Positions 463-46,732 of a stretch of DNA of 48,641 bases are shown piece by piece; within the stretch, counting starts at the first letter, position 1; every line of letters begins with the position of its first letter. The position numbers and the translations under genes are program-made. The notes beneath the pieces were generated by a model. That model ran no database searches, had not been told where the DNA came from, and saw only the letters and a list, made by a program, of their open reading frames with translations. The DNA is from Reclinomonas americana ATCC 50394. Taxonomy: Eukaryota. The stretch spans positions 39,100 to 87,740 of the forward strand of contig PS015369.1 of NCBI GenBank assembly GCA_048213135.1. Direction: 5' to 3'.

Positions 463-3431
463 ATGGGAGACCGCCTTGCACGCTCCATATATATTCCGCG
501 ACTCCATCGCGATGTTGCGTGCAAGAAAAACGAAAGCAGTCTATGCAAAGTCTCAGTCTCTCACTCATTGCACTCTCTCTGTGTATACACACACAGACCA
601 ATGACAAGGCGCTTTGTGAATTTGTGCTCTCGCGATTCAAGAATCGCGGGGTTGTTGTCACGGATGTGCTCTCCAATCGAGCGCCGGAGGGACACAAGTG
701 GGCCATTGTGGAGCTGAGCACCGAGGCAGCTGCAGCGACGGTGCTGCGCGAGTTGCAGGGCGTGGACATTGATGCGGAGGGCATTGTGTCGCGAGAGTTG
801 CGTTGTCCAAGTCGCATGCGGAGATGAGCCGCCCGCTCAGATGCTCACTGTTCATGCAACTCGTGCAGTGTGCGACCAAAGATGGCGGCGAGACCGATTC
901 AGCGTGGCGCCAACAAGGGTCCGTTTGGTGCGCCGTCGCCTGCACCCTCGACCGCATCGTCGGCGTCGTCGTCGTCGTCCTCGCTGTCGTCGTACTCGTC
1001 GTCGTCGTCGTCGTCTGGATCGGCGTCGCGGTCCGGGCGGGCGTCTGCGCCCAGCGTTGTGCAATCGCCGGCGGCTGTCGCAGCGACTGCCAAGGCAGCG
1101 GCGGCGGCAGCAGCAGCAGCGGCGGCGCACGTGGTGCATCATCACCATCACCATCACCACCACTACGCCAATGCGGCGGCGGCGAATGAGAAGGCGGCGG
1201 CGCGAAGTGGCGGCAACAGCAGCAGTGCTGCCTCCGCCGCCGCCGCCACTGCCAATGGGGGGAGCGCGTGGTTCAGGCCAACGTCGGCAACCGCCACTGC
1301 TGCGGATGTTGTCGCGGTGAAATCAACGGCGCCACCGCAAGCGCACACCGCCACAACCGTCACTCCCACCACTGCTGCGGCTGTGGTGACCATGCCAGTG
1401 GCGGATCCATTTGCGTCGAGTGGCGAATCCGTAGGTTTACCACTACGACCGCCATCCGCCATGTCTGCACGTGCAGGTGCGCGTCCAGCGGCGCCCCAGT
1501 CGCGTGCCGCGGCTGCCGCACTGTCATCGCCGTTCATGTCGGCGGCGTCGGCGTATTCCGACTTTGATGCCGACGCCGATGTGGACGCGTTTGCCGCCTC
1601 GCTGCTGGCCGATGTCGACGACGATTATGACGACGACGACGACGGCGGTGGTGGTGGTGGTGCTCTCTTCCACAGACACAAGAGTGCATCGAGTGCAGGG
1701 CCACCCCTTCAGGCAACTCCCGCACCGGCGTCCCTGGTGTCTGCCACGACCACGGCCTCCACGAAAACGAATACGCATGGAGCACCACGAGCCAACGGCA
1801 GATTAGGCGGCGATCACGCACCGATGTCGGCGGCCGCGTCGGCGCCGCTCCGTGTTGCTGCCTCGTTGTCGCTGCAAGTGGCGGCTCCGGTTGTCGGCCT
1901 GTCGCGAAATGTGAGCAGCAGCTCCAGTCGCGCACCACGACCGACAGCTGGTGTCACCAGTTCAACTGCCACCGCGGCTGCTACCGCTGCTGCACCAGCG
2001 TCCCGACAGTCGACCAACGAATTCACTGAAGACGATGTGGCGCGAGGTGTGTGTGTGTGTGTGTCACTTGGCAGGGAACTGATTCCTTCATGCGCTCCCC
2101 TGAACACCGCCGCCGCACACACATAGGTATCGTGTACGTTGGGCGCCTGGCCGGTGTTCCACGAATTCGCGTTCTCGAAGAATTCAGCAAACGGTACGGA
2201 CGCATCACGTCGGCGTCACACAAGGACGACAAGACGCCGTACTGCATCATTGGCTTCGCGAGCACCGACGCCACACGGCGCGCACTTGCCGACCCTGAGC
2301 CACCCATGTTTACCAATCGCCGAATCCGGTTGCGTCCGCGTGACTACCAATCGTTTCCTGTGTCACTCGCTCACTCACACTCTCACATCTGCTGCGTGCA
2401 CGCTCCAGAATCAAGCCCTACAAACGCTCCCTGCGGAGTGAAGTCCGAGGCAACCGTCTCGCGACTCTGGTTGACAGCATGCTCACGCGGTCGCCACCAT
2501 CCGCCTCGCAAGAGTTGGTGGATGTGGTGAACTCGCTGGAAGTGGTACAAATGGATGTGCAGGCGGCACACTTGTGCGACGAGATTGTTGCGGTAGAGAT
2601 GCAGCTTCGCGACATGCCGCAGGTGAGGATCACGGCTTGAACTCCTTCGACTTGCCGACATGCTCACGCCAGACATGTGTGTTGCAGGGCACGGAGCGCA
2701 GGGCCATGATTGGGCGGCTACGTTCTGCCGTCGATCGCCTGAGTCAAATGGCCAACGAGTATGCCGAGCGGATGGCGACGGACGAGACTCCCGACGTGGC
2801 GTGCACCGAGGAGGAAATGTTGCGTGCGCGCGTGCTGGCATGTGCGTGTGCTTGTGCGTGAGTGTTTGCTCAAATCGATTGGTCGTGCCAGCTGCCCGAT
2901 TTGCCATTCGGGCCTGTCGGAGAGTGAATCAGTGCGGCTGCAATGCGCTCACGACTTCCACCGGCAATGTCTGGTGGAGTGGGCCAAGATCGACAAGCAG
3001 GATACGTGCCCGATTTGCCGAGGCCCTGTCGACCGACAGGCGCTGGGAATCACCGAAGTGTTGCAGAAGCAGCCGGAGGAGGCCGAGTTGCGCGACTTGG
3101 CACTCGCTCTGCGATTGCAGTTGCAACTGGCTCCACCAGGTTTGGGAAGAAGACTGTGCATTGTTATTTAGCGCCGCCTCAACCCTTGTCGCTGCTGCGA
3201 GCAGGACGCGAGCGAGATGCCATGGAACAGAAGCTGCGTGACATTCAGGACAAGTTGCCAGTCGCCGTCGATCACGGGCTGGCCAGCCGCACGTCGTCGC
3301 AACCCGAGGAGTGGGTGATGCACTCGGCGCGAAGAGTGACAAGCAGCGGCGGCGGTGGTGGCACCAGCAGCAGCGGCAGTAGCAGCAGTATCGGTAGCGT
3401 CGCTGCGCCGAGGCGTGGAGGACGACGATGA
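463..3431 (+). CDS. RRM-RRM-RING-H2 protein (putative RNA-binding E3 ubiquitin ligase), about 8 exons
   Basis: Spliced RRM1 (SIYIPRLHRD|TNDKALCEF...KWAIVELST), a long Ser/Ala/His low-complexity linker, RRM2 (IVYVGRLAG...YCIIGFAST) and RING-H2 CPIC...CAHDFHRQC...CPIC. GT-AG introns, e.g. 514-596 and 2819-2891, keep frame. Start codon uncertain. Confidence 0.75.
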
Positions 3432-3569
3432 TTTCTCTGTCCTCTGTCGCTCACTCCCCCCAGTCTACATGATGTAACAAAAGAAAAAAACGCATATCCA
3501 CCCAACAGTGTGTACGCGAACCGTGCATTTATATTCAATTAGCCAACAAGCAGCTCGCACACACACACA

Positions 3570-4979
3570 TTATCCGTCGACAGAGTACGGGCGAACGCGA
3601 CCAATGCTGCGAATCTCGCGGCCGCCGTAGTTTTGCAAAACCTCTAGCCGGAACACGCGGACGTCGGTCGCCGCCTCGGTGAAATCTATAAACAGCGAGG
3701 TACCGTTGGAGACAATCGGGATCAGGTACTCGCCACAGTCGACTTGCGACATGCCACCAGAAGCCGCGCCTCCTTCGCCAAAGCACACGACTCGCATGAC
3801 TCGAGGCTGTGAACGCGCACAACCCTTATTTTACAAGTTGCTTTTGGGGAAGTGGAGCACAATCATGCAAACCTGCGACGGCCAGCCCTCCAGCGAGTGC
3901 TCCACCTCCAGCCGGAAGCCGGCGATACGCATCGGCGCGCCAAACATCAACTCGAGCGCAGGTGGATCCGTAAACTGCTATGGGAGTGAGTAGGGGGACG
4001 AGGAGAGTAAACATGCGCGAGAAATTGAGAGCACCTTGCGCTGCTGGTCCACAGGCACCATGGTCTTTTCGGTGAGGGCGCGCGCCACCATGGTGGTGGC
4101 ATACTTGGGCACGTAGGCGTTCGTGAAGCGATGCGGATGCAACGGAGCAGCAGTGCTCGTTGGTTCTCCACTGTAACAAGGTGAGTCCCGCAGGCTGCAA
4201 AAAGGGGAGATCATAAAGACGCAACGCGGCAGCGGCCGTGGCCACGGCGGCAGTGGAGTCCGTGCCGCCAGAGTGCAGCGCCATTGAGATGCGACGAGTG
4301 GATGGAGGGTGCGGGTGGGGTTGCGATCCGTGTGGATGAGGTCGGTGATGGTGCAGGCCAGGCGAGTCCAGGTTGTGCACCGACGACTGCAGCGTCGCTT
4401 GCACGTCACCGTGTGCACTCGATGCAGCCGGACTCCAATTCGTGAACGGGTAGCCGAGCACGTGCAGGCGGTGAATTCTCAACCGACACGTCGGCTCCAC
4501 CACATGAGGCCTCGTGAATCGCACGCAGACCACTCGCCCAGTTACCGGCTGCGCCAGTGCGCCCAACAACGACGAGGACATGGGCGACGATGTGACTGAC
4601 GAATGCATGGCTTCGGCTGGCCATCTCCACAGATCGATAAAGATTTCGCAGTTGACGAGTGCGCGACTGACACCGGACGCCGAAGCTCCCGGATCTACGA
4701 CGCCGTGAGTGCGCCTGGTGGTAAGGGAGGAGAAATACACACACTTACACACGAACACGCACCGACAGCACTGACAGTGTGTGCCAGATCGGCCTCGGGG
4801 TGACGCGGACGCACAACAATGCCACTGGCGTCATCGCCAGTGTCGTCGTCGCTAGGCTGACGACCGGCAACCTCGGCCAAATTCCACCGACCGACCTCGG
4901 AGAGGGTGCTCAGATCGTCGCCCACCTCCACCGTCACAATCGGTATCTGTCCATGCTCGTAGCTGCCAGTCGCCAGTCA

Positions 4980-5053
<74 letters not shown>

Positions 5054-8000
5054 CGTACGTACGTACGTACGTACCGACGTACCGTACCCGACCGTACCGT
5101 ACCGGTACGGTACGGTACGGACGGACGGTACGTACGGTACGGTAGGTACGGTACGGTACGGTACGGTNNNNNNNNNNNNNNNNNNNNNNNNNNNNNNNNN
5201 NNNNNNNNNNNNNNNNNNNNNNNNNNNNNNNNNNNNNNNNNNNNNNNNNNNNNNNNNNNNNNNNNNNNNNNNNNNNNNNNNNNNNNNNNNNNNNNNNNNN
5301 NNNNNNNNNNNNNNNNNNNNNNNNNNNNNNNNNNNNNNNNNNNNNNNNNNNNNNNNNNNNNNNNNNNNNNNNNNNNNNNNNNNNNNNNNNNNNNNNNNNN
5401 NNNNNNNNNNNNNNNNNNNNNNNNNNNNNNNNNNNNNNNNNNNNNNNNNNNNNNNNNNNNNNNNNNNNNNNNNNNNNNNNNNNNNNNNNNNNNNNNNNNN
5501 NNNNNNNNNNNNNNNNNNNNNNNNNNNNNNNNNNNGAGAGAGAGAGAGATGGGGTGAAGATGAAGCTCCGCTGTCAACACTCACCCCGCACTGTCGGTGA
5601 CGAGGCACAGTTTGGTGAGGTGCGATGGCGTCGGCAGCACAATCACAAAGTCGCAGGTGGAGACGTGCATGGGGGCCCACCACGACTGCAGTGGCAGCAC
5701 ATCGGGGGCACACAGTGCCACTTCTGCGGGGGCCGATGTGGAACCGACGGGCTGCGTGCGCGGCAACGTGAGAGAATGCCGAGACTGTGCGGCAGAAAAA
5801 GACACGAGACGCACCACTTGGTTCACCACCGCCGCATGTGGGAACTCAGACAACACAATCTCCGAGGAGGCGATGCGGTACGAGCGGCTGGTGCGCGTGT
5901 GTGGCGACAGGCCAGAGAAGAGAAGCTCCTTGTCCCACAGCCGTTTCGACACCTCCTCGGCCTCCTCTTCGTGACGACCTGCGACGGCATCGGTCAGGCA
6001 GGGCGGTCAAGACAACTGAGGGGTCACACAGCACACAACGCAACGAGCAGCCATGACCAGCTCGCCCAGTACATGCTGCTGGTACGCGAGAACGTCGTGA
6101 CAGCGTGAGCACACACGATGCGAGGCATCCCAGTCGAACTCCATGATCTGTGCACAGTGTGACTGTCAGCAATTCTCGGGGAATGAGAACATGGGAACCC
6201 AAAAGCCCACTCAACTTGCCACTTGGACGGCGCCAGGCACTTGGTGCAGAACGAATGGCGGCAGTACCGGCAGCTCTTGCGAGTGCCGAAACGACCAAAC
6301 TCTTTCTGGCACTTGTGGCACATGACCTCCGACTTGGCCATGTTCTGACGAATCATTTTCTCGGCACGCTGCATTCCCCGCGAAGGCATGTCAGACAGAC
6401 GTGTGAGAGCGAGTCTCATGGGATTACACAACAGTACCTCATCGCGACGGTGCACAAAGCGATTCGGGTTAAAGTGTGCCGCATGCAGGCCGAGACGGAG
6501 GAGCACCATGTCACGCTGTGCGTCAGGTGAGTCGCACGAACGAAAGGGAAAAAGTAACGCTGCAAGCACTTGCCTCCTTTGGTGACAGTTCCAAGCGTAA
6601 CCGCACACTCTCGAGCGCCAGCGCCAGTGTGAACGACATGCCAGTGGGGCGCTTGACGCCATAGTTGTACGCGACGCCGACCACTTGGTCGTTGATCAGC
6701 TCCTCGGCCGAGGCGAGAGCCAACGCAGAGCCGAGGTTGCTGGCGACACCGGAGGCTGCCGCCGCCGCCGCCGTTGCTGTCGTCGTATCTCCAGCCGCAG
6801 CCAAGCTCTCCTGCGCCAACAGGCCCAGTCGCAGCGGTGGTGGACCCCGATCGCTGTAGTCCTGGAACGACGTGTAGTGGCGCACCAGCATCTCGTAGGC
6901 GCGCTGTGGTCGACGAGAATTCATGAGACAGAGACTGGTGTGGTGGGTGGTGAGACGAGGCTACCGCACCATGCGATCCTCCGTGTGCTCGGCGGTTTTG
7001 CGCTCGACCGCAGCCGTGGCGCCGTCACCCAGCGAGTCCAGTTGAGCACTCTGGTGCTTCCTGCCAGTGACACCCGCCGCAGTCTCTGTCTCCTTGCGCA
7101 GCAGCAGCTGAACTTTTTCACCCACCATCTCCACCTGCAAGATTTGAAAGGGAACGGGTGAGTGAGCTGAGAGGCATGGCATGGCCTGGGGGGAGGGGGG
7201 AAGAAAAACGCACCGACTGCCGCTGGTAGATGCCGTTGAGCTCCAGCTGGTGGACATTAAACAAGTGAGTGAGAAGCAGATGGCACGCCAACAACCTGTC
7301 GCCGTGACACGCACCCGAACATCCACCGGCGACAGCTTTCGGTGCTTGTCGACGCCAAACACCTCAATGTTGCGCAGCACCATCTGTGCGTCGCCAGGTG
7401 GTCCGCGGAAAATGAGTTGTACGGCACGCACCAAGCGACGGAATCGCGGCGTCGAAGCTGCAGCAAAGAATAACGGCTTCAGCAGAAGACTCACGAAAAC
7501 TGAAAAGTCCACGATGGGCGCAACTCGAGCCATCAAAGTCGTAGAGGGTAGAGTACGCTGTGGAGCCCGAGATGCGCGGAGGCATGGTGAACACCATGCG
7601 CGTCTCGTCCAAACATTTGGGAATGTACACATCCTGTGCGCACATGACAGGCTGTCGGCAACACACGAAGAAATCGACCGCACATAAGCTCGTCTTCCAC
7701 TTGCCTGCAACGCCACGTCCATGTCGTCGAGGTACTTGCCGACCAGAATGTCCATGTAGCGGGTGGCATTCACGTTGCGCAGCGTGAGCGCAATCATCGA
7801 CAGCTGCACGTACTCGGGAAGCACCAGCCACAGCTGCACGGCCTCCGGGCAGCCAGGCAACTCGAACGGCTCGGCCTTGGGTCGCGGAGACGAGGCGGCT
7901 GGCTCGGGCGAGGATGCAGCAGGCGCCGCATCACCTGTGTGTGTGTGTGTGAAGAGCGTGAGTGTCGGCAACTTTTAGTGTGCTCGCTTGCTCGCCACCA

Positions 8001-8993
8001 ACTGACCTCCGACAATCTTGCGATAGAGGGCCCGGAAGAAGCCGCCCACCACACCCGATTGCGCCGCCGGTTCCTCCGCACCCGCTGCCGCCGACGACGG
8101 TGCTGATGGAGAGCCACTCCGGTCGCCGTCCCCCTCGTCGGAGCCCGCCAGTGATGCTGCGCAGTGAGAAGGGAAGTGTGAGGTGGAAGTCAAGAAAAAC
8201 AGATGAAGAATTTGAAAAGATTAAAAGCCGCACCGAGACTGGCTCCCACAGATGGGGGTCGCAACAAGCGCAAAGAAGTCGGCTTGCACAGGTAGTAGCC
8301 GTGCTGCATGAAGAGGCGCTGGCCGGCGCTGGCCGGCGTCATGGACGGCGGCGAGAAGACCACGGCACTGCAAGGGTTGTTGCTCAGCACCACGGTGCTG
8401 CGTGGGAAGCCGGGAACGTGCACATCGCTACACATGGAAAGGGAATCGATGAGCATCCCAGAAACGAAGAGGGGTGACATGGGCGGCGCAACGTGAGTCG
8501 CTCGAGGAACAAGTCAAACTGGACCTGGCGATCCGTGTCGTTGAAGACGTTTTGGTAGCGCCGTTGCAACACCTGCACGCTCACCCTGTGGTGAGCCACC
8601 GACGCCACAGCGAGAAGGCAGCATGCCATCACGCAACAATAAATGTGTTGATGGGAGCCGACGGCAGGTTCGGAGCAAATGCGCGAATGTGCTTGGTGTG
8701 CATGGCCGGGCTGTTGGTGTACAGGAGCGACATGATGTCGCCGACTTGGACTGCACAAAAGAGGAGGGTGAGTCACATTTGCCTGCAGGCCTGTATCTCA
8801 CTGCCCAACGCAACTGGTGAGCTCGGCCAGTGCGCCGGCCAACTGCGGCTGCAGCACACGCTGCAGTTCGTTGACCGTCATGCGCAGGAAATACCACTCT
8901 TCGGGGAAGTTGAGCTCGGGCGGGAGCTGCACGCCAAGATGCGAGCCGCCAATTGACTCCTCGTCACTGAAACGGCGGAAACCTGCAGACGCA

Positions 8994-9042
<49 letters not shown>

Positions 9043-12000
9043 GAGGAGGAGGNNNNNNNNNNNNNNNNNNNNNNNNNNNNNNNNNNNNNNNNNNNNNNNN
9101 NNNNNNNNNNNNNNNNNNNNNNNNNNNNNNNNNNNNNNNNNNNNNNNNNNNNNNNNNNNNNNNNNNNNNNNNNNNNNNNNNNNNNNNNNNNNNNNNNNNN
9201 NNNNNNNNNNNNNNNNNNNNNNNNNNNNNNNNNNNNNNNNNNNNNNNNNNNNNNNNNNNNNNNNNNNNNNNNNNNNNNNNNNNNNNNNNNNNNNNNNNNN
9301 NNNNNNNNNNNNNNNNNNNNNNNNNNNNNNNNNNNNNNNNNNNNNNNNNNNNNNNNNNNNNNNNNNNNNNNNNNNNNNNNNNNNNNNNNNNNNNNNNNNN
9401 NNNNNNNNNNNNNNNNNNNNNNNNNNNNNNNNNNNNNNNNNNNNNNNNNNNNNNNNNNNNNNNNNNNNNNNNNNNNNNNNNNNNNNNNNNNNNNNNNNNN
9501 NNNNNNNNNNNNNNNNNNNNNNNNNNNNNNNNNNNNNNNNNNNNNNNNNNNNNNNNNNNNNNNNNNNNNNNNNNNNNNNNNNNNNNNNNNNNNNNNNNNN
9601 NNNNNNNNNNNNNNNNNNNNNNNNNNNNNNNNNNNNNNNNNNNNNNNNNNNNNNNNNNNNNNNNNNNNNNNNNNNNNNNNNNNNNNNNNNNNNNNNNNNN
9701 NNNNNNNNNNNNNNNNNNNNNNNNNNNNNNNNNNNNNNNNNNNNNNNNNNNNNNNNNNNNNNNNNNNNNNNNNNNNNNNNNNNNNNNNNNNNNNNNNNNN
9801 NNNNNNNNNNNNNNNNNNNNNNNNNNNNNNNNNNNNNNNNNNNNNNNNNNNNNNNNNNNNNNNNNNNGTGCCAGGACTTGCAGGCCGGCGACTGCATCCC
9901 GCAAAGTAGAATTCAAAGAGAAGAATGAACGAGTGAGGGAATGGCAAACACAAAACGACGATCGTCTTGCCACAACTGCACAACACGTAAACGCAACAAA
10001 ACACCATGATATTCGTGCGATCGAGCGAATCGGCACAGTTGATGCGGAAGTAGCCTTTCTGGCGCGCGAACACATTCGGGCCCGACGCGTAACCCACCGG
10101 CCGACCGTCCTCGTTGAATGTGTACCTGAAAACAGCAAAGTCACTCGACAGTCATGTGTGCCCGTCGACGGAAAATGCACGTACTTGAGGTAGCCTGACG
10201 TGAGACCGTAGTCACGGAAGAGTGACGACAAGGAGCCCCACATGCCGCGCACGGTGTCGTTGAAGCCGAGCGTCTTGCTGTTGGAGTGCCAGTCAAAGTT
10301 CATGAACTGCACGTTCAGTTCCATCTCGCTGCGCACGCGGCGCAGTGCAACTTGATAGTTCTGCAAATGGGAAAGTGTGAGACAATGTGTGTGGGGAGAA
10401 GGAAGGTGAAGGAGAAGAGAAGTCGCACCTCCACCAGCAAGCTCTCCATGTGATCAGGCGTGGACTTGAGCAAGCTCACGCAGTGGAAGGGCACCGGACC
10501 GTATCGCCCAACCATGTGACGCCAGTACACATCGGTGTCTGCGTGATGTCACAAAGTGAGCGATCACGTGCTGAACGCGCAATCATCCGTCCAAGTACGA
10601 AACTACGGAAGGGGTCCTTGTCGATGACGATCTCCGGCTCGGCCACGCTGTGTCGCAAGTGGGTGCGCCAGTGCAGTGGCACGGTGCCACGGCGCAGCAC
10701 CCAGGTGGCAAACGAGACGCCGACCGGGCTGTGCATCATGCAAATCTGCTCCTCCTCGGCCTCGTTACCGGGCCCTGCATCGCCGATCAACGTGGGTGAG
10801 AGAATTGCGAATAAGTGTGCTGACGCGGTTGTGCGACGACGCAACAGGATTGATCGTTCAGTCCGCGTGCCACGTATCGCGTGCCCGCATTGAAGGAGCT
10901 GCGGCGCACAATAATCGCCACCGTGACTGAACGCGTCATGTTAGAGCAACTGAGCAAGGGTGCGAGTTGACGATGAGGGGGCATACGCAACTGGAGAGTG
11001 AGGGAGCCGACGACGACGGCGACGACGACGGAGCCGCCGTGTTCATGTAGCGAGAGGCGGCCACGCCCTGGCACAAGACCACGCAGAGGTGGCGGAGTCC
11101 GCGGGCGCGGAACGGTGCACTGAGCTCGGCGTTCCACCAGAATTCCGGTGAAGGCCTATCGAGGGAAAGGGGAAGGGAGGGGGGAGGGGAATGGATGGTG
11201 AGCAGGAGGAAGACTGAGGAGGAGGAGGAGGAGGAGGAGGAGGAGGAGGAGGAGGAGGAGGAGGAGGAGGAGGAGGAGGAGGAGGAGGAGGAGGAGGAGG
11301 AGGAGGAGGAGGAAGAAGAACAAGAACGAAGAAAAAGAAGAAAAGAAGAAAAAGATGCGGAAGGAGGAGGAGGAGGAGAAAGAAGAGAAGGATGAGGGCA
11401 GTAAGAGGAGGACGGAGGATGGAAGGAAAGAAGAGACACAGAGAGAGAGGAGGGGGGAGAGAGAAGCAGAGAGGATAGAGAAGCGAGAGGCATCATGAGA
11501 ATCGAAGACAAGGGCAAACCCTGAGATAAGTGTGCACTGAAAGAACACCAAGTGATGACACCGCCTCCGAGCAGATTGATTACCCACACACTCAACTCCT
11601 CAATCGGATGATGCGTCGAGGGGAACGGTCGCGTAATGTCCGTGGTCTCGCAGTAATAGTGCATGGTGTCCAGCGGGAACTGCGTCAGCATGTCGCAGGC
11701 CCGCACAAACTCAGCCTCGTGCTGCGGCTCCGTGACCACGTGATGCAGCGGGATTTTGATCCACTGCACACACGCACATGCATGAGAAACGTTCACACAA
11801 TGTGGAATAGGGCTCCAGAGGCGCAGGCCAACACACAAACCGTCGATTCCATGATGGTGCGCACTCGGTGGCCACCGGGAAGCACCAAATCGTCCTTGAC
11901 ACGCGTGGCCAGCAACAGCAGCGCAGTGGCACCGTACACGCGGTAACCCACCAGCGCACAGCCGCGTCTTGACGGCGCACACAAATCAGCACATATGTAC

Positions 12001-13407: not shown

Positions 13408-13440
<33 letters not shown>

Positions 13441-13832
13441 GAGAGAGCCCCAAGTGTGCGCAGGTAATAAGAAATGCCACTAAAATCCGCAGTTTCTCTC
13501 CCGCCCGAGTGACCATACATGTCTCCCGCAGCACCGAAGAGCGAGAGAGAGCGTGCGTGTGAGACAGAGGAACAGGCACACAGGTCGAGAGCGAGGAAAT
13601 ACGAGTTCGGCAGACAACACGCAACAGAGGAGTCAGAGGAGCCTCATTCTGTCTCCACAAGTCTCTCTACAAATGACCGTGCTGTGCGTGTGAGTGAGAG
13701 AGAGAGACAGAGAGAGACACACACAGAGAGAGAGAGAAAAAGTGATCACAGACAACACAAACAAGAGAAGACCGCCAATCTCTGTGAACCATGCGTGTCT
13801 CTGAATAACACCAGTGTGTGTGTGTGTGTGTA

Positions 13833-13922
<90 letters not shown>

Positions 13923-15163: not shown

Positions 15164-17236
15164 ATGAGCAGCGCCGCTGTGCCTCCATCGTCATCGTCTG
15201 CGAGCAGTGCCACCACTGCTTCATCCGCTTCCGCTGCTGGTGCTGGTCCTTTGCCTGCACCATCATCTTCGTCATCATCTTCGTCATCTTCCAGTGGAGA
15301 GAATGTTGTCTTGTTGGAGATCGGCTCACGCTTTGTGCGGTGCGGATTCAGTGGAGACGCGCGACCGCGATTTCATATTGATTCGCCACCGCTGCTGTTG
15401 GGACCGCATGCGCTCATGTGGCGTGCGCGGGAGCTGTCGGCCAAGCAGCGCAAGCAGTACAAGACGCAGTTGGAGTTGTTCATTCGACACATCTTTCTCG
15501 AGTTGCGCTAACAGTGGCGTGTTGTTTTTTGTTGTTGTGTGTTGTGTTTTCGTGACACGTTCGCACTGCAGCTTCTTCTATGTGGAGCCGCGACACGTGT
15601 CGGCCATTGTGTGCCTCAACTTGCACATTCCCTCGTTCCTGGTGCGCTGTTTGACGGAGATTCTGCAGACGAACTTGCGGGTGAGTGCTGGAAGAGAAAG
15701 GAGGAGGATGGCGGATTGCTGACCAGTCGCTGCTTGCTACAGATACGGCACTTGCAGTTTCTCACCGCACAGCATGGTGCGATCTATGCCACGGGCAAGC
15801 AGTCGGGTATTGTGATTGACTGTGGGCTGTCGGAGACGCGAGTGCTGCCGGTGTACAACATGCAGTCGTTGGATACGTTTGCCTCGGTGGTGCCGTTTGG
15901 TCACCTCACTGCGCAGCGGGCGCTGGCGCGTGCTGTGGGTGAGTGGAAAGGGGAAGGGATGGGGGAAGGGGAAGGGGGTTATGTGAGAAGCGGGTATATT
16001 TCCTGGCGCACTTTGCGTGGAGTCCTCTCTGGGCACTAACCTTCCAGTATGGCCTTCCTTCATCAAGTTGTCTTTGTTGGGAGAGAGAGTCGTCTGAAAG
16101 AGACCTACTGAGACACGTGAGAGGGAGACAGCCACATACCTTGCTCTTTACCTCTCTCTCTCCTCCATCGTTGGTGGTGTGGAGTTACGGAGCACGAGAG
16201 AACGAGCATCGTCTGAACAAGACCACCAAAATACGTGAGAGTGTACAGCTCCTTTGCCAGACTTGAGGAGCAAGAGAACGAGAGGCATGGCTGCTGAGAA
16301 TGAGAGAATTGTGTATGACAACAGCTTCATTCTCTCTCGCTCCTTCGCAAACATGCGTCAATATCGTTCATTTCTATCTGCTGCCAACTTTTCTTCTTGA
16401 TTGTGTGGGCAGCACGAGAGATGAAGGATTCGTGCCTTGTCTTCCTCTTTCTCCTTTTCTCTCTCACTCTCCTCTCCTCGCCTTCTTTTCGTCCCTCCCT
16501 GCCTCTTCCTCACCCTTGAATCCCAATGTCAGGACTGTCCATTCCACGCGGCGCACGACCCAACCTCATGCTCACCGCGGAGAGCGGCAATGGCACACCC
16601 ACACTCCTCTCCGACCCGCGCCTGCTGGAGCCCCTCGACTGGGATCCCAACGTGGACCTCGAGTCAATGGCGCTGGCCGCCGCAGTGAGTCCGCTCTCCT
16701 CGCAGCCGCCCNNNNNNNNNNNNNNNNNNNNNNNNNNNNNNNNNNNNNNNNNNNNNNNNNNGGTGAGAGAGGGAGGGGAGACAATTTGCTCATGCGCTGT
16801 CCGCAGAGACGTGCACATTCCAGGCATTGTGCGGGGCACTGCTGCGCACTGCCTCGTGTATGATCACGACGGTGGTGCGGATGGAGAGGGCGCGACGCTG
16901 AGCACGGCCATTCTGTCGACGCTGCTGCGCTGTGATCTCGATCTGCGGCGGGAGCTGGCGGCGAACATTGTCGTGGCGGGCGGTGGCTTCATGATCACTG
17001 GCCTCCCCACTGCTCTACACCGACAGCTCGTGCACGATGTGGAGCACAAGGCCGAGTTCGCTGCACTACGAGGTATGATGACAATTGTGAGGATATGCCC
17101 GCACTCCCTTCCTGTGTACCCACAGTGTGTGTTTGTGTGCTGTGCAGGCCTCAAGTCGACACTGATGGTCAGCAAGCTCGCCGTGGACCCATTCCTCACC
17201 ACGTGGACCGGACTGGCGGTGCACAGCTGTTTGTGA
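15164..17236 (+). CDS. ACTR10: Actin-related protein 10/11 (dynactin pointed-end Arp)
   Basis: VLLEIGSRFVRCGFSGDARPR; ATGKQSGIVIDCGLSETRVLPVY; TLSTAILSTLLRCDLDLRRELAANIVVAGG. Multi-exon, with a small gap. Confidence 0.75.
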
Positions 17237-17431: not shown

Positions 17432-19268
<1,837 letters not shown>

Positions 19269-29447: not shown

Positions 29448-29744
29448 CGAGAGAGAGACGTCGTCGTCGTACGTACGTTCGTTCTTCTCTCTCTCTCTCT
29501 CTACTACTACCACCTACCTACCTCCTCCTCTCTCTTCTCTCCTTCCTTCCTTCCTTCCTTCCTTTCCCGTTCCGTCGTCGTCGTCGTACGTACGTTACCG
29601 TTCGTCGTCGGNNNNNNNNNNNNNNNNNNNNCGGTCGTCGGCCGCCCGTACGTCCGACCTACCGGTCGACCGAACTACGTACGACACCTACGACTACGTC
29701 GTCCGCCGGTCGTCGTACCTACGTCGTGGTCGACGTAGTAGACG

Positions 29745-31003: not shown

Positions 31004-31042
<39 letters not shown>

Positions 31043-36760: not shown

Positions 36761-37491
36761 ATGTCGCGACTTTACATTCTGTTCGCTGTCACCTTGACGC
36801 TGCTGCTGGTCTCGCTGGTGTGCTCCGCCTCTGCCGCCGAGCGCACCGATCGCGAAGCACTGTTGCGCGCGTCTCCCTCTAGATCTTTCCTCGCGATCGC
36901 AGTGCTTCCCACTCACTTTTCGCTGCTTGTTTGCAGTGCTGAGGCGCATGCCGCAGAGAACAAGGTGTGTGTGCACTGCGCGCAGCGACGCGTCGCACAG
37001 CAGCCTCACCACATCATTATGCGCGTCACAGCTCAAGGCGTCGGCAAACAGCGCCGTCGCCAGCATCCAACACCTGGTGCGCAAGGCCGCCAAGGACGCC
37101 CACCACGCAAACGACGTCAGCAAGGTGGTCGAGCGCGCCAAGCGAGCCATCAATAGCAGTGTTGCGGCGTTCACCAGCGCGGCTGCGACGGCCGGTAAGC
37201 CGAAACCCAAGCCCAAGCCCAAGCCCAAGCCGACGCCTCCGCCTACTAGCTAGTACTCCCGGTGGCGGTGGTCCAGTGGAAGCCGACGAGACATTCTCGG
37301 TTCCCGTGAACTACCCACCGGTGTCGTCGTCTGCGATTGATCAGCAGCTGAGGCGTGTGGAGGAGGCGCACCGAACGGCCATCAAGGATCTGGAGAAGCT
37401 CATCAGCAAGGACGCTGCCGCCGGTGCAACGCAGGCCAATAAGGTCGGCCACGGACGCCGTCGCTTCGAGATCACGGATCCGGGAGGATAA
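36761..37491 (+). CDS. Small secreted Ala-rich helical protein of unknown function
   Basis: Signal peptide MSRLYILFAVTLTLLLVSLVCSASA; in-frame introns at 36862 and about 36965; the last junction (37195-37249) is ambiguous. Confidence 0.55.
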
Positions 37492-38205: not shown

Positions 38206-40560
38206 ATGAGTGGCCGCCACTCTCTCTTGGCCTTGCTTCTTCTCTTTGTGCTCACTTTCGTTGTGAGCTCTCCGTCTGCTCCAGTCGCGCACGCGCAGAG
38301 TGTGCTCTTCTTTGATGACTTTACCGGAAGTGCCATTGACATGACTGTTGCGGAAAGAGGAAGAAAGGAGAAGAACAAGAAGAAGAAGAGGAAGAAGAAN
38401 NNNNNNNNNNNNNNNNNNNNNNNNNNNNNNNNNNNNNNNNNNNNNNNNNNNNNNNNNNNNNNNNNNNNNNNNNNNNNNNNNNNNNNNNNNNNNNNNNNNN
38501 NNNNNNNNNNNNNNNNNNNNNNNNNNNNNNNNNNNNNNNNNNNNNNNNNNNNNNNNNNNNNNNNNNNNNNNNNNNNNNNNNNNNNNNNNNNNNNNNNNNN
38601 NNNNNNNNNNNNNNNNNNNNNNNNNNNNNNNNNNNNNNNNNNNNNNNNNNNNNNNNNNNNNNNNNNNNNNNNNNNNNNNNNNNNNNNNNNNNNNNNNNNN
38701 NNNNNNNNNNNNNNNNNNNNNNNNNNNNNNNNNNNNNNNNNNNNNNNNNNNNNNNNNNNNNNNNNNNNNNNNNNNNNNNNNNNNNNNNNNNNNNNNNNNN
38801 CTCTCTCTCTCTCTGTCTCCTCTCAGTCGAAAGTCTGTGTTGCTCGTGGTCACTCCGGCTGCCGAATCCCTATCGCAGCGTCTTTTGTGTCCCTTTGCCT
38901 CCATTTCTCTATCTTGAGTGCTCGTTGGTGGGCAATTCTTCACCTTTGTCTTCCACGCTCACCGCTCCCTTCTCACACAGCACCGGTTCGCTCGACCTGT
39001 GGGGGTCGCAGCCGGCCAACATGTGCACGGGTGGGTGCTCCATCTCGATGAACTGCATCCCTCGCTGTTCCACCCCTCTCACTCCTCACACAGGCAACGC
39101 CTTCTACGGCTGCTCGCGCTCCGCCGCCGCCTCGGGCAACTACCTCAACCCGATCATGGTTCGCCGTTCTGCAATGAAGTTTGATTCATTTCCCCTTGCT
39201 TACTCTTGTTTGCCACTGCCCGCAGTCGGCCCGCCTGCGCACGGCCGAGTCGTTCACCTTCAAGTATGGTCGCGTGGAGATCCGCGCCAAGCTGCCGCGT
39301 GGTGACTGGATGTGGCCGGTGAGTGTGGTCAAAGAATACAGCGTCGATTATCTCTGCTCACCAAGTATTGCAATGGCAGGCCATCTGGCTCCTCCCTGCC
39401 GACAACGCCTATGGAGGTGCGCCTCTCTTGTGTTCTTACTCAAGAGTTCATTATACTCACTTCCATGCCTCTTCCCACAGAGTGGCCGGCTTCTGGAGGT
39501 TTGGATTGCAGGTTTTGACCCTGTTAAATTTCGTCGCACTCACACCGCTCTTCGTCATCGGCAGAGATCGACATTGTCGAGTCGCGCGGCAACGGTGTGA
39601 TGCATTGTTTGCCCCCTCTTCCACTTCACTCGCCGCTCACTCTCCTTGCCTCCTCCCAGATCCGTCGTACCCTCCGGGTGGACGCAACAAGGTGCTTTGC
39701 TGTCTCCGTTGTTGTCTCTCTGTGGCATCGCCGTGTCTTATCTGGTTCTCGCTCGCACTAGTTCGGCTCCACGCTGCACTGGGGACCGTACTACAACCAG
39801 GACAAGTGGCCGATGGTGAGCGGCGAGTGGAGGAGGGTTTGCATTGCCAGTGTGACTGACAGTGACGTGCACACAGACGCACGCCGAGTACACGCTGCCG
39901 TCTGGCGACTTCTCCACGGACTTCCACGTCTTTGGATTGGTGCACACATCTTGCCTTTTGCTTTCCATGTACAACTTTTATCGTTGCTAATATTGATCAA
40001 TGGTGGGCACAGTACTGGAGCGAGACGTGCGTCATACACACTCTTTCGCTGTTTCCCGTTCCCCTTGTCACTCATCACGCGTGACACAGTGAGATTTACA
40101 CGTACATTGACTCGCCGAGCAACCACGTGCTGCACGCGTTCTTCAACAAGAGCCTGTGGGAGCAGGGTGGCTGGGGTCCGAGCTGGGCGAACCCGTGGAC
40201 TGGCCGCGGCAACAATGCGCCGTTCGATCAAAAGGTGCCGTGTGTGTGTGTGATTCTCGCTGCGACGCTGTGCGATTGTCGCTGACCTCGCACGCAGTTC
40301 TACCTGATCTTCAACGTGGCCGTGGGAGGCACGAGCGACTACTTCCCTGACGGATACGGCAAGCCGTGGGCGAACGCGTCACCGACGTCCGTGAACCAGT
40401 TCTACGACGCCAAGGGACAGTGGTACCCGACGTGGTTGGCGGCTGGCGACAGCGTTGCGTTGTGTGTGTCTTGGTGGCGGTATGGAGTTATTTTCGACTC
40501 ACTTCTGCATCACAGGCTGCAATGCAAATCGACTGGGTCCGCGTCACCTCGCTGACTTGA
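38206..40560 (+). CDS. Secreted GH16 beta-1,3-glucanase (beta-glucan recognition protein/laminarinase type), more than 12 small exons, spans a gap
   Basis: Signal peptide; [37 protein letters not shown]; spliced catalytic [37 protein letters not shown]. Confidence 0.9.
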
Positions 40561-41457: not shown

Positions 41458-44031
41458 TCACTGAAGAGTGACGCGCTCAAAGAGATAATCCGTGGTGACG
41501 CAAGCGCCCTCGCGCAGCAGAATGCGCTTCTTGTCCTCATCATTGACGACCCACACATTGACACCTGGTGCGAACACGCGTTAGGTTTCACACAAAGACA
41601 TGGCAAGAGATGGCGACAAACCATAGCCTGTGGGAGCAAGTAAGCACACACACACACACACTGCGAAAGAAACAAACAGGACAACCGCACCTCGATCACG
41701 CAAATGTCGGACCAGACGCTCCGTTGTTAGCAGGCTGTGCATGCCGAGTGCCGTGGCGCCGATAAATGATGGCAGCCACGTCATGCACGACCAATAAATA
41801 AAGAAATCCCACAAAAATGTTGCATGTTGCATGTACCACGGCAGCGCATCCAACGCCGACGGATCCTTGGCAGTGTCTGTGCCTCTCTGGTCAGCAAGCA
41901 TAGTCGGAAGGGAGGAGCTCTGTGGCGCGCAACTGCTGCACTGCCGAGACACCAGGTACCGCTGCGCCAGCAGGGTGGTGCGCACTTTCGGGTCGAATTG
42001 CCGCAGGTAGTACAAGAACAGCGGATTGAAGGAGATTACGTGGCAACGCTCGCGCACGTCGTCACCTGCGGGTGGAAATTGAGAAGGGAGGGAGGGAGGG
42101 ACAAGTGAAGTGAGGTCTCTGTCCACGAACCATGTCTCTCGAAAAAGTCGGCAAGCAGCTGTGCGTTGTGTCGCGAGTTCTTGAAGGGCTTGACCTCGAT
42201 AAACAGCATCCTGGCGAGACAGGGAGAGATGAGCATTACTTCGAAAAAAGGACTGGGGGAGAAGACGAAACTTCTTGTAGCGATTGACCAGCGCCACCAC
42301 ATCCTCCAAGGTGGGGATTTGAATGAGGGCGCTAAACAAACAAGATGAGTTCTCATTTGCGTGAATTACACAACAACACTCACTACCAACGCAACTCGGA
42401 GCCGCATGGCGCATTGGAGAGTTCCGGGTGCGCCTGCACCATCTTCTCCACCGAGAAGGCGTTGTACCGCACGTGACTCAGCAGCTCGTGGGAGGAGTGC
42501 GCTGAGAGTGGTCGCTCGACGCCAAACATGCGCTTGAGGGAGAAGTCGTGGTTGACAACGGCCACCTGCAAGGTGGGGAAAGGGGTGGCGGGAAGGGACA
42601 TGATGAGAGACATGACGAAGATCACAATGTTCGCTCTGTGACCGATGAAGAGTGGCAGAGAGGAGGAGGATCGCAGCGTGGTTGAACAAAAGACGAGAAG
42701 GTGATAAAGGGGGAGCTGCAAGATACCGATGCAGATGACGAGAAGAGGAGAGAGACACCAACAGTCGTCGCGCTCAGAGTCGAAGAGGTGAGAAGCCGAC
42801 GAGATACGGAGGAATGAGCAGCTGGGGCATTCTGAAGAACACAATGCTCGAGACAAGCAAGAGGAGGAGGACGAGAGAAAGAGATTGCGTGCTCAGTGTT
42901 TGAAGAGGTGAGAAATAGACGAGATGAGGAGTCGGAGTTGACATGAGAGGCATTCTGAAGAACACCAGGCTCGAGATGAAGAGCTGCGAGAGACACACCA
43001 GTGCAGGTTGGCAAGAGGAGAAGAGAGTGAAGAAGAGATGAAGCACTCAGTGCTTGAGAGGTGAGAAACCGACGAGACAAGGAGGCGCAGACGGCATGAG
43101 AGGCATTGTGAAGAACATCAGGCTCGACATGAAGAGCTGAGAGACACAAGTGCAGCTGACAACACACAAGCTGAGGACGAGAAGATAGAGAAGAAGAGGC
43201 GACGAGGCGCAGATGACATAAAAGGCATTCTGAAGAACACCAGGCTCGAGATGAAGAGCTGTGAGGCACACAAGCGCAGTTGGAGAAAGAGGAGATGAAG
43301 CCCTCGGGATTTGAAGAGATGAGAAATCGACTGAGATGAAAAGTCAAGGCACACAAACAATCACTCACACACACGAGAGACACACACCACAGAAGCACTG
43401 ATGCAACTCACCTCATCACTCGTCCAATGAATATCAATCTCAACTCCATCAACTCCCGCCTCCAGTGCGTGATAGAGCGAGGCCAGAGAGTTCTCCGGCA
43501 ACGTCGGCTTAACAGCACCACTAACAAAGAGAGAAAAGAGAGAGAGAGAAGAGAGTGAGAGAGAAGAACGACATGTCACGAGTCATGACAAGTTACAAAC
43601 ACACACACACACAGACACACACAGAGAGACACACACAGAGAGACACACACAGAGACATAGAGAGACACAGACACAGAGAGAGAGAGACACACACACACGG
43701 AGACACACAGAGACACGCACACACACAGGGACACACAGAGACACAAAGAGAGACACACAGAGACACATAGAGACACAGCACTCCCACACAGAGACACACT
43801 CTCAGTAACTCACACACACACTCACTCTCAACACACACATACACACACTCCCCCTTCTCATTCATCTCTCTCTCTCACTCACCGATGCCCAATCAGCTTC
43901 CCTGTGAGTTGCGTCTGCGCAGCGCGTCGCAGTTGCAGTGAGGTGGGGCCGACACGGAGCCAAAAGTAGGCCACAGTCGCCATGGCACTAAAGAGCATGA
44001 TGGCGCCGGCGAGCGCCTCGAGAACTGCCAT
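41458..44031 (-). CDS. Glycerophosphodiester phosphodiesterase (GDPD/GDE1-like) with N-terminal TM anchor
   Basis: [49 protein letters not shown] and GACVTTDY after splicing. Confidence 0.88.
42770..43335. repeat. Intronic degenerate tandem repeat (about 120-150 bp, 4 copies) in GDPD intron 2
   Basis: ggcatt(c/g)tgaagaaca...ctcga at about 42826, 42949, 43102 and 43224. Confidence 0.8.
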
Positions 44032-44806
44032 GATCGTGACAGACAGAGAAATCGAAAGTGTCACGTGGGACGCTGCTTTCCAACTGACGCACGTGTGAAT
44101 GCAGCAGCGTATACGCTGCCATTTGCGCTCTAAAAAAGCACATGCGGTCAGGCCTGCACCGATATCCATTGATTTATCGAGTTCGATATCTGGATCCGGC
44201 AAGTTGCGACTTCGCCTCTAAAGACAGCTGTGCTTCTCGGGTCCGGATACGCGCGTCACCTGGCGGTTGTCGTGGTGCGCACTATTGGCAGTGAGTGACC
44301 GGCTTGCAAGGCGATCACGATTTCGATATCAATTGCAAGCGACGCTCTGCAGACAGCTTCTCAGCATCCCCGTCTCCAATCCCTCGTCTTTGTGCATACA
44401 CTCTCCGCTTTCATGTACGCGCGCTACTTGATCATCGCAGTCAGTGCCAGCAGTTGTCGCTTGTATCGATATCGATATCGCGAAGTTCATTTTTTCCTCA
44501 ATTGAGCTGGCGACGCTCTTCGCGGTCAGCTTCCCGGCCTTCCCATTGCAGTTCGGCGGGTCTTGATATGCGCGAGAGTTGATAGCTGTCGTACAAGACT
44601 GTGAGTTGTCGACGTCCGGATGGATATCCGTTTTTCCTAAATTGATCGCGACGCTCTTCACAGACAGCTTCCCGGCATCCCGCCTCTCCAGTCCCCCCTT
44701 ACTCTGGACCGCGCACCACCTGCTCCTCTTCTACGTGGCACACACACACACACACACACAAGGCAGTGCGTGACAGGATTTGTCCGTTTTCTACTTTCGA
44801 GCGAGC

Positions 44807-46732
44807 ATGGGCAACAAGGCCTCCTCCGACCTCCTCAAGGCGCGCGTCAAGCAGCTCCACAACAGCAGCAACTCCTCGTCGCACACCAAACCGGCCGCAG
44901 AACGAGTTCCGTCTCAGTAACTCTTGGTTTTCTCTTTGTATGCACAGTGACAAGTGTTGACAGACGCGTGCCACACACTCACAGCCGACAGCCGCCATTG
45001 TGTGCTCCTCAGTGGACCCCACACGGTGAGCACTCTATCACACTACTCTTCTTCTGTCCTCCTCCCTCCTCACACATTCTCCCCACAGCTCCGGTCGCTC
45101 AGGCTCCATCACGCGAGTCACTCTCAACGCACAGTCACAGTCCAGTCATCATGTGCAGCAACGACGAGGCTCTGCACCCACTCTCTCTGTGGAGCCTCCA
45201 CTACACAAGCCACCACTCGTCAGTGGTCGTCGAGGCTCCACGCTCTCCACGCGTCTGGCCGAGCTCAGTGCGCTCTTGCACGATGTGCAGTGTGCCATTG
45301 AGCAGCGAGAGGAGCAGGAGGAGGAAGAGGAAGAGGAAGAAGAAGAGTTCCAGTCACTGGCCGCGGACAGTAAGCTGTCGATGTTGTTGCGCGTGCAGCA
45401 GTGCGAGTCACCGGCCACGTGCACCCTTGCGTCTTCGTCGTCGGCGATCACCGACTTGGATGAGATGAGTGGGAGGGCGGACGAGTCGACGGATAGTGCG
45501 GCCACGATGAGTGCAGAGGATGAGGAGGAGCGAGAGGAGAAGGAGCAAGAGCAGAAGGTGTCTGTGGAGGCACCACCACCACCAGCTGTCGTGGTGTCGT
45601 TGGTTGGCGAGACGCGACCTCGACCTGTCCGCTCACCACTGAGGTCTTTGCGGTTGCCGTTCACTGCGTCTCCTCTCTCCTCGACTGACTTTCGTGGCAT
45701 GCAGTGTGCTGTCGTTTTTGAGTGGTCGCTCGGAGACGGCCCTGCGTCGCGAGTTGTCGCACGTCACCGACGCGTTTGCGGAGGTGTCGATGACGGAGGT
45801 GGTGCCGCCGTGCATTCTCAGTGTCGTGGCGCAGAACCCGGCGGTTTTGCTTCCGCATGGGTTGACAGTGCCGCCGCTGCGTTTGCATGATCCGCAGCGT
45901 GCGCTTTTCAATGCCGCGTGGCGTGGCGACGTGGCCGCGGCGGAGCAGCTGCTGCGCGACGAAACACTGCAGTCGCAGGTGGATGTGGATGCACAGGATG
46001 CGCGCGGGCGCACCATGCTGTACATTGCGGCGTTTGCCGGTCACGAGCCTCTCGTGCACTTGCTGCTGCATGACGATTTCAGCGCCGACCCCACCATTCC
46101 CACCGACAAGGGCAGCACGCCGCTGCACTGGATCGTGGCATCGCCGAACAAGTTCTCCGCCAGCACTCTCCGACTGTTGCTGGAAAAGGGTACGCACAGC
46201 GATGCTGTCTCGCGATCGATGTGTCGCTTTTTAATTTACCTCTCCTTACAGGAGCCGACGTCAACGCGTGCGATCACCAGGGCGTCACGCCGTTGCAGCA
46301 GGCGATTCTGCACCGACACGCCGAGGCTGCAGCCACCATGCTCACCTACGCCTCACCTCCCATCTGTGCCGCCGACTTGTGGCGCACCGACGCGTGGCGA
46401 CGCTCCGTGCTCACGATTCTCCACAGCTTCTCCAATGTTACGCACACTGCTGCCTCGACAAGAACAAGACCCCGCTGTAGCTCAAGACTATGTGTTTACA
46501 GAACCTCCTGGCACGCCAGCTCATCGAAAGCGCCTGCCATATCCTCGTCGGCGTCTCCGACGAAGACGTCGGCAGTGCCGGCTGCGACGTTCGCCTCAAT
46601 TCCTCGCCACCGCAAGCCGCGCGCGGCAAACAACGACGCGCGTCTCTCAGTCTCATTAGTCAGTCAATAGCCCCCGTAGCGCCAGTGGAAGAGCCAGAGC
46701 TTGGAAGTCCAGGACAGCTTGTCCTCGTCTGA
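44807..46732 (+). CDS. Ankyrin-repeat protein with N-myristoylation-like start (MGNKAS)
   Basis: DARGRTMLYIAAFAGH, DKGSTPLHWI and DHQGVTPLQQAI ankyrin repeats; acidic low-complexity N-terminal part; 5' exon phases uncertain. Confidence 0.65.

Follow-up and report, generated by a model that had tools for sequence, protein, structure and literature searches.

Can a spliceosome serve two forms of one donor motif, the second standing one base further into the intron than the first? The question is raised by a stretch of 48,641 nt from Reclinomonas americana ATCC 50394 (contig PS015369.1, positions 39,100 to 87,740), hereafter the window, which is eukaryotic, gene-dense and intron-rich, with introns mostly of 55-110 nt. 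In an earlier note on this DNA, 26 introns had been proposed to start with GTTGCG after an exon that never ends in G, and this donor had been interpreted as a register-shifted or bulged form of the ordinary one. All 26 positions indeed carry GTTGCG on the given strand, and none has a G before it.

Three classes are distinguished below: S (GTTGCG donors), S2 (their GTT-NN-G-Y relatives) and N (ordinary donors). The curated table contains 74 introns, 43 N, 26 S and 5 S2, and S donors therefore represent about a third of the introns (26 of 74), as the note had estimated. GTTGCG(T/C), with the few GTT-NN-G-Y relatives, appears to mark introns that follow exons ending in A, T or C, and exons ending in G appear to use the ordinary A-G|G-T-G-C-G-Y family.

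The last base of the exon and the displaced motif

The bases found at exon position -1 are the following:
N donors: G 39, T 2, A 1, C 1
S donors: T 11, A 10, C 4, G 1
S2 donors: A 5

A G thus precedes 39 of the 43 N donors, in agreement with the claim that the other donors are mostly G|GT, but only 1 of the 26 S donors and none of the 5 S2 donors (Fisher test, S versus N, p=1.4e-13; S and S2 together versus N, p=2.8e-15). Among homology-checked junctions only, the counts are 14/16 for N and 0/8 for S/S2 (p=6e-5); without the four junctions located beside variable stretches they become 14/15 and 0/5 (about 4e-4, calculated by hand). Seen from the exon, S or S2 donors are used by 30 of the 34 exons that end in a base other than G, and N donors by 39 of the 40 that end in G. 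The G is also rarer before donor GTTGCG than base composition predicts (p=0.0016). The four N donors that follow another base all display a strong intron side (GTGCGT, GTGCGG, GTACGT); N donors that follow G are often degenerate, such as GTGCTT, GTGCAC, GTGCCG and GTTTGG, all homology-verified in the GH16 gene described below. Intron phases 0/1/2 differ as well (22/16/5 for N, 5/15/11 for S/S2, p=0.003), a difference that would be expected if third codon positions are mostly G or C in a GC-rich genome.

In the N consensus, -2 of the exon is A (21/43); within the intron, +3 is G (28/43), +4 is C (25/43), +5 is G (36/43) and +6 is T or C (31/43). In the 31 S/S2 donors, T occupies +3 in all, followed by G at +4 (28), C at +5 (29), G at +6 (31) and T or C at +7 (31). 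Scored by the N matrix, their positions +3 to +8 obtain -6.96 bits in register and +6.30 bits when offset by one base, N donors scoring 3.96 bits against their own matrix over the same columns. The final pyrimidine is present at +7 in 26/26 donor versus 15/26 non-donor GTTGCG sites. The exon side matches when shifted, S(-1) being similar to N(-2) (p=0.40) and S(-2) to N(-3) (p=0.48), and differs when unshifted (S(-1) versus N(-1), p<=0.0002; S(-2) versus N(-2), p=0.008).

At the level of sequence statistics, the register-shifted interpretation of the note is thus upheld. It is well supported that the motif, from -2 to +8, corresponds to the ordinary donor displaced by one base: |G-T-TGCGY would be A-G|G-TGCGY in which the second G has become T and which is cut one base upstream. 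Compared with the note, the observation is confirmed and sharpened in four points: the extension of the motif to GTTGCGY, the broader GTT-NN-G-Y class, one probable exception at -1, and the shift of both sides of the cut.

Support for the GTTGCG junctions

Introns were modelled by a Viterbi gene-structure model with a self-trained coding model, which required only GT...AG, used no donor matrix and scored introns higher when their 3' end had YAG and a CTNAY-like motif. This donor-blind model over-predicts (112 introns versus 74 curated). A second model, with a neutral prior, gave the same reward to a +5 G as to a +3 T combined with a +6 G, and ignored -1. Exons were searched one by one, or homologues were aligned locally to the spliced models. 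Of the 74 introns, 24 are graded as homology-checked and 45 as supported by frame and coding, each of the latter having one consensus-like donor; 3 are ambiguous and 2 weak.

GTTGCG starts 17 of the 112 introns of the donor-blind model, compared with 0.86% of the 6018 GT sites (binomial p=2e-16), and is the top donor hexamer of the neutral-prior model (18/73). Half of the GTTGCG sites of the window (26/52) are curated donors; among 11 composition-matched GT hexamers, GTGCGT alone is ever a donor, at 6 of its 68 sites. S donors are found in 10 of the 12 intron-bearing genes.

The S and S2 introns are listed below (exon bases in lower case; ^, junction in the protein):
514..596, +: S intron, 83 nt, gat|GTTGCGTG; weak, the first exon being short and the upstream coding score negative
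797..868, +: S intron, 72 nt, aga|GTTGCGTT; frame and coding
2329..2408, +: S intron (added), 80 nt, ccg|GTTGCGTC; sole GTTGCG donor with G at -1 and only consensus-like donor in frame; the RRM profile stops at the preceding exon end, which fits 2329 and is compatible with 2353 too
2819..2891, +: S intron, 73 nt, aat|GTTGCGTG; next exon begins at the first Cys of a RING finger; with the same-frame donor at 2846 instead, the intron would measure 46 nt
4171..4225, -: S intron, 55 nt, cgc|GTTGCGTC; only GT candidate in frame
5979..6044, -: S intron, 66 nt, ctc|GTTGCGTT; frame and coding
6148..6215, -: S2 intron (GTTGAGT), 68 nt, caa|GTTGAGTG; splits a FYVE finger, whose first half matches profile positions 7-39 of 67 and whose second half we read as ..RVCSRC
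7458..7524, -: S intron (added), 67 nt, cga|GTTGCGCC
8428..8492, -: S intron, 65 nt, cac|GTTGCGCC; frame and coding
8573..8637, -: S intron, 65 nt, att|GTTGCGTG; frame and coding
8751..8814, -: S intron, 64 nt, cca|GTTGCGTT; frame and coding
9892..9997, -: S intron, 106 nt, ttt|GTTGCGTT; directly after the SAC catalytic motif; homology, DRTNIMVF^FAGLQ..VLA being colinear with DRTNLICFFNSIQ..VLAE of relatives
10539..10603, -: S2 intron (GTTTCGT), 65 nt, gta|GTTTCGTA; KDPF-R^NTDVYW has the length of relatives; an alternative donor at 10606 would delete a residue
10775..10845, -: S intron, 71 nt, cct|GTTGCGTC; Pfam Syja_N and homology, RGLNDQS^WPGNEAEEEQI versus RGLNDKSSPGNEYESEQI in relatives
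10927..10991, -: S intron, 65 nt, cca|GTTGCGTA; homology; downstream block conserved from 2 residues past the junction, upstream flank of low complexity
11156..11596, -: S2 intron (GTTGAGT), 441 nt, gga|GTTGAGTG; contains a (TCC)n run; THHPIEE^PSPEFWWN versus THSP-QDYTEEFCWN, colinear within one residue
11968..12035, -: S intron, 68 nt, gca|GTTGCGTT; colinear; the sequence a few residues upstream is variable
15502..15571, +: S intron, 70 nt, cga|GTTGCGCT; actin-related gene; frame and coding
18760..18827, -: S intron, 68 nt, tgt|GTTGCGTC; cyclophilin; homology, one residue left for the split codon
19050..19205, -: S intron, 156 nt, gct|GTTGCGTC; cyclophilin, after a 21-aa first exon that we read as signal-peptide-like; frame
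22210..22399, +: S intron candidate, gct|GTTGCGTT; weak, acceptor uncertain
27212..27271, +: S intron, 60 nt, aat|GTTGCGTC; frame and coding
27491..27586, +: S intron, 96 nt, aga|GTTGCGCG; frame and coding; an alternative acceptor at 27571 would give 81 nt
28996..29073, +: S intron candidate, 78 nt, tct|GTTGCGTC; ambiguous, open read-through
30668..30834, +: S intron, 167 nt, tga|GTTGCGTC; frame and coding
36862..36936, +: S intron, 75 nt, act|GTTGCGCG; frame and coding
40454..40515, +: S intron, 62 nt, agc|GTTGCGTT; last GH16 intron, colinear with 13 homologues (..GEDSALQIDYVKVW)
41877..41933, -: S intron, 57 nt, gca|GTTGCGCG; GDPD; frame evidence weaker, read-through open
42211..42271, -: S2 intron (GTTTCGT), 61 nt, gaa|GTTTCGTC
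42332..42395, -: S intron candidate, 64 nt, cga|GTTGCGTT; ambiguous with the same-frame gta|GTGAGTGT at 42383
44906..44984, +: S2 intron (GTTCCGT), 79 nt, cga|GTTCCGTC
13620..13625, -: noted GTTGCG, not judgeable, on an island between two runs of N letters
38347..38352, +: noted GTTGCG, not judgeable; a run of N letters begins 48 nt downstream, and +7 is G, unlike in every accepted donor

Support to some degree was obtained for 24 of the 26 noted intron starts, those at 13625 and 38347 lying beside runs of N letters that prevent any judgement. Six are supported by homology (18827, 40454, 10845, 9997, 12035, 10991) and a further 14 by their frame and coding, GTTGCG being the only consensus-like donor in frame (797, 2819, 4225, 6044, 8492, 8637, 8814, 15502, 19205, 27212, 27491, 30668, 36862, 41933). 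Two are weak (514, 22210), and two have a same-frame alternative (GTGTGT at 29023 for 28996, whose read-through is open, and gta|GTGAGT at 42383 for 42395). The two S donors at 7524(-) and 2329(+) complete the class. The GTTGCG at 2587(+) probably lies within an exon, since its acceptor is reached in the same frame from cag|GTGAGG at 2623. The site at 8265(-), GTTGCGAC, was tried as a donor and not counted, as its frame is wrong for the shared acceptor and A occupies +7. The neutral-prior model moved six donors (10845, 2329, 2819, 19205, 30668, 42395) to same-frame alternatives on weak content scores; homology settled 10845 alone and 42395 stays ambiguous. The other four were put back because GTTGCG is the only consensus-like donor in their frame.

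Three genes provide the homology checks. In the cyclophilin gene, exons 3, 4 and 5 align with residues 19-39, 41-65 and 67-93 of human cyclophilin A (1ak4_A), and exons 3 and 4 with residues 21-41 and 43-67 of cyclophilin B (1cyn_A). As exactly one residue is left per split codon, both the GTTGCG junction at 18827 and the 779-nt intron at 18681 are verified. The GH16 gene (38982..40557, +), a beta-1,3-glucanase or glucan-binding-protein-like gene with 13 small exons, has as nearest named relatives the fungus Actinomortierella wolfii and animals. Its hand-curated 12-intron model is colinear with 13 homologues, without gap at every junction including 40454. These 12 verified introns, 11 with ordinary donors (10 after G and 1 after C) and one with GTTGCG, are the reference set for the ordinary class.

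The third gene, on the minus strand from about 3270 to 13700, is apparently a single very large one, cut by four runs of N letters and containing more than 25 introns; it encodes an N-terminal SAC phosphoinositide-phosphatase domain (relatives of 1350-1460 aa) and a FYVE-like finger near 6050-6370. The 9-intron model of the SAC domain (438 aa, stop-free) is colinear with full-length relatives, without gap at 10845, 9997, 10603, 11840 and 10428 and within one residue at 11596; the junctions at 12035, 10991 and 10184 are colinear but adjoin variable stretches. Independently, Pfam coordinates are exactly colinear at 10845 (Syja_N 181 to 185) and abut at 17649 (123/124). With 10603 and 11596, the homology-colinear S/S2 junctions are eight in number. 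Two introns are long among neighbours of about 68 nt, namely 11156-11596 (-, 441 nt) and 17903-18681 (-, 779 nt); the (TCC)n run of the former reads in frame as poly-serine and misled the gene model.

The hexamer could have been placed by chance beside mis-modelled introns. Indeed, it is not enriched window-wide (52 sites versus 45.4 +/- 6.2 in shuffles, 16 of 100 shuffles reaching 52), and the gene models are home-made and over-predict. However, the eight junctions colinear with homologous proteins and the enrichment in the donor-blind model lead to the rejection of such an artefact, which we regard as extremely improbable. Removal of the introns yields proteins colinear with their homologues, and branch motif and acceptor are those of U2-type introns (all 74 being GT..AG by construction). 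Judged from the sequence, the GTTGCG(T/C) donors of this window are real and form an abundant 5' splice-site class of U2-type GT-AG introns.

In other respects, S introns are ordinary. YAG acceptors end 43/43 N and 29/31 S/S2 introns, and the median length is 68 nt for N and 69 nt for S/S2. In both classes a CTNAY branch motif is found about 20 nt before the acceptor, the last CTNAY being CTCAC or CTCAT in 26/37 N and 19/24 S/S2 introns that have one. This branch-like motif, found in 45 of the 61 CTNAY-bearing introns, has C in place of the purine of the usual CTRAY, and the 3' parts of introns (last 45 nt; e.g. 18770-18785, -) are enriched 7-fold in CTCAC. U12-type introns display an RTATCCTT donor and a TCCTTAAC branch site near the acceptor; neither an RTATCCTT-like donor nor TCCTTAAC was found in the curated introns. 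Like U12-type introns, S introns add a second highly conserved donor motif to the main one, but they have the branch motif, acceptor and length of ordinary introns. The complement of the donor, CGCAA, occurs internally only twice in 1935 nt of S introns, giving no support to intramolecular pairing.

The repeated 7-nt start and the common CTCAC motif might also hint at a mobile intron family (introner elements) carrying its own donor. However, the best pairwise interior matches are only 10-15 nt long and of low complexity, pairs reaching 20 bits represent 1.0% of S-S, 0.2% of N-N and 1.1% of S-N comparisons, lengths range from 55 to 190 nt, and the branch motif also occurs in ordinary introns. 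As the interiors share no sequence along their length, S introns do not appear to form a separate type of intron, and an introner origin, hardly credible, is rejected.

Candidate readers of the motif

The best explanation, towards which we lean on balance, is that one motif is used in two registers and that a single reader recognizes the displaced form by shifted reading. This reader, most probably the 5' end of U1 snRNA, would bind both donor forms alike, the intron's own first G substituting for the exon's last G in the pairing. Later, the spliceosome would cut at the first GU met, one base upstream of the usual place in the U1 footprint. A bolder version, a two-register donor code on a co-evolved spliceosome, is proposed tentatively, as less likely than not: a U1 with a non-canonical 5' end, or a second U1, would pair with G-N-U-G-C-G-Y, the cut being made later at the first GU. 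The window contains no snRNA gene, and no RNA family at all, detectable by Rfam at gathering thresholds. Pairing was estimated by nearest-neighbour folding with the canonical U1 5' end as given in PMC4856993, with the following mean duplex energies:
N donors with G at -1 (n=39): -6.9 kcal/mol
N donors with another base at -1 (n=4): -2.0 kcal/mol
S donors (n=26): -0.9 kcal/mol
S2 donors (n=5): -3.3 kcal/mol

Several points weigh against the shifted reading. Canonical U1 is predicted to bind S donors far less stably than N donors with G at -1 (means of -0.9 versus -6.9 kcal/mol), and few S donors take the shifted register in their minimum-energy duplex with it. With canonical U1, shifted H|GUUGCGU gains no pairs over H|GUGCGU, but it is used some 7-fold more often (30 versus 4), and the near-invariant C at +5 is not explained by canonical U1. 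As S donors are predicted to get almost no stable pairing in any register, a shift on canonical U1 is insufficient alone. As to the exon, the claim that G never stands at -1 holds for the 26 sites of the earlier note and fails just outside them, at the probable S donor 2329; moreover, G is not significantly rarer at -1 of donor (1/26) than of non-donor (4/26) GTTGCG sites (p=0.35). Finally, every junction was established from frames and homology; for 45 of the 74, frame and coding are the sole support, and 5 more are weak or ambiguous. The table was curated with the hypothesis known, exon position -1 being absent from every model used, and the sample is a single 48.6-kb window.

In a what-if scan of U1 positions 5, 6 and 8, whose design makes it circular, the canonical end takes rank 31 among 64 for its fit to the window donors. 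The best-fitting hypothetical ends have G-C at 5-6, and S donors then adopt the shifted register; with position 8 changed, S donors would become perfect complements. A dedicated or lineage-modified snRNA is thus conceivable, either as a sole U1 with G-C for U-U at 5-6, which would pair with the G-C of both classes, or as a second, position-8 paralogue fully complementary to GUUGCGU. It would account for a motif that is near-invariant (+5 C 29/31, +6 G 31/31, +7 Y 31/31) in spite of weak predicted binding, and a similar suggestion was made by Irimia and Roy about the GTGCGTG donors found in Ostreococcus (PMC2483917). The circularity of the scan reduces the value of that ranking, and many organisms tolerate weak U1 complementarity with protein help. 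The 5' end of U1 also ranks with the best-conserved RNA sequences of eukaryotes, which counts against a variant. Globally, we consider a dedicated or modified snRNA rather unlikely, a modified single U1 being compatible with the shifted reading by one reader rather than opposed to it.

The bulged alternative of the note supposes that G+1 and U+2 pair with U1 normally, that the U at +3 (or +2) bulges, and that GCGU then pairs like +3 to +6 of GUGCGU. On the intron side, GT-T-GCGY can indeed be viewed as GTGCGY with one T inserted, and a +2/+3 bulge register has been validated experimentally in humans, with 54-68 predicted sites (PMC4856993). However, a bulged U would leave the exon side in its normal register, and the shift is preferred for this reason: the bulge predicts that -1 G and -2 A are favoured, whereas G stands at -1 in 1 of 31 S/S2 donors and S(-2) departs from N(-2), as given above. 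It would also cost energy without gaining pairs over H|GUGCGU, yet S donors are far commoner. The bulge is thus disfavoured and seems improbable. Plain compensation without change of register, in which donors deprived of the exon-side G would require a strong intron side and GTTGCGY would simply be the strongest intron-side motif of the lineage, read by a protein, U6 or U5, agrees with the degeneracy of N donors with -1 G inside the intron (+5 G in 32/39) and with the strong intron motif of every donor after another base. It leaves unexplained both the exact one-base displacement of the ordinary consensus on the two sides of the cut and the use of the available H|GTGCGT in only 4 of 34 non-G cases, and is considered very doubtful.

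Shifted and bulged U1 registers are already known from humans, where they are proven for rare donors, validated non-canonical registers concerning about 1.5% of 201,541 donors; cases are also known in which U1 pairs at a distance from the cut, whose position is then set by U6 (PMC4856993). The human shifted-register donors (Roca and Krainer 2009, as presented in PMC4856993) resemble the S class in having GU at the cut, a poor canonical fit and downstream bases that match one position on, the intron's first G standing where the exon's last G normally pairs. They differ in abundance, since the class described here includes 26-31 of 74 introns and is the near-sole solution after a non-G base; in motif, A-rich in humans and GUUGCGY here; and in the very weak pairing predicted with canonical U1. 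Furthermore, the class is known here from sequence alone. The human +2/+3 bulge register (Roca et al. 2012; Tan et al. 2016, PMC4856993) similarly has an extra U between GU and the rest of the consensus, but does not predict the shift of exon-side positions observed here.

The AG|GTGCGT(G) donors of Mamiellophyceae (Ostreococcus, PMC2483917; Micromonas, PMC3879977) have the same consensus as the ordinary class of the window (A at -2 21/43, G at -1 39/43, GTGCGY), and the question whether snRNAs changed to match the donors was raised there too (PMC2483917). By contrast, no GTT-type class is described in the available text of either source, although the supplementary logos of PMC3879977 could bear on Micromonas. 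Their branch motif is (N)CTGAC, compared with CTCAC here (PMC2483917; PMC3879977), and their genomes are intron-poor outside special regions, whereas genes of the window contain up to 12 or more introns. The window does not come from those species, its best protein matches being about 50-60% identical. Literature searches returned only primers and unrelated RNAs for the motif, and no lineage-wide case for shifted or bulged registers and protist donors, supplementary logos lying outside their cover.

How U1 handles diverse donors, and how the cut is fixed after U1 leaves, has been studied almost only in humans and yeast. If the shifted reading is true, this lineage would offer a natural system for register choice, the U1-to-U6 hand-off and the co-evolution of snRNAs and splice sites, with a third or more of the donors following a simple non-G rule. 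If the two-register code is true, U1 footprint and cleavage would be uncoupled by one base at about 40% of introns, and this would be the first organism in which recognition in a non-canonical register is a constitutive genome-wide rule. Gene finders trained on +5 G donors will mis-annotate a large share of the introns of this lineage; our own donor models misplaced several introns until homology corrected them.

The window and its other genes

The window has a GC content of 57.9% and contains 3,820 N letters in ten runs, which interrupt several genes:
5168-5535, run of N letters
9053-9867, run of N letters
12453-13407, run of N letters
13923-14037, run of N letters
16712-16761, run of N letters
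21005-21351, run of N letters
26356-26375, run of N letters
29612-29631, run of N letters
38400-38800, run of N letters
47259-47987, run of N letters

The GTTGCG sites at 13625 and 38347, which adjoin such runs, were omitted from the curated table. The same holds for the 6606/6558 donor pair, which is ambiguous, for microsatellite donors around 2050 and for all doubtful predictions located in untranslated or low-complexity sequence. Searched exon by exon against Pfam, three sets gave no match for 4/10, 8/10 and 4/9 exons, many of which are short. Two single-exon proteins of the window have no exact match in the protein collection, and a SAC exon found none when searched against longer proteins. 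A protein atlas yielded generic ankyrin clusters only. A metagenome DNA scan returned a single contig of 1271 nt (L001) from a distant, lower-GC organism with GTGAGT/GTAAGT introns, which is uninformative.

Two further genes are intronless. One (33291-36182, +) encodes a 963-aa protein in which a urea-transporter domain (PF03253) is fused to ankyrin repeats; its closest relatives, 50-60% identical, are all metagenomic, and one of them bears the name of an archaeal metagenome-assembled genome but is probably a mis-binned eukaryotic contig. The other (19805-20794, +) is a WD40 gene whose seven 42-aa repeats are nearly identical and seem to have been homogenised or expanded recently.

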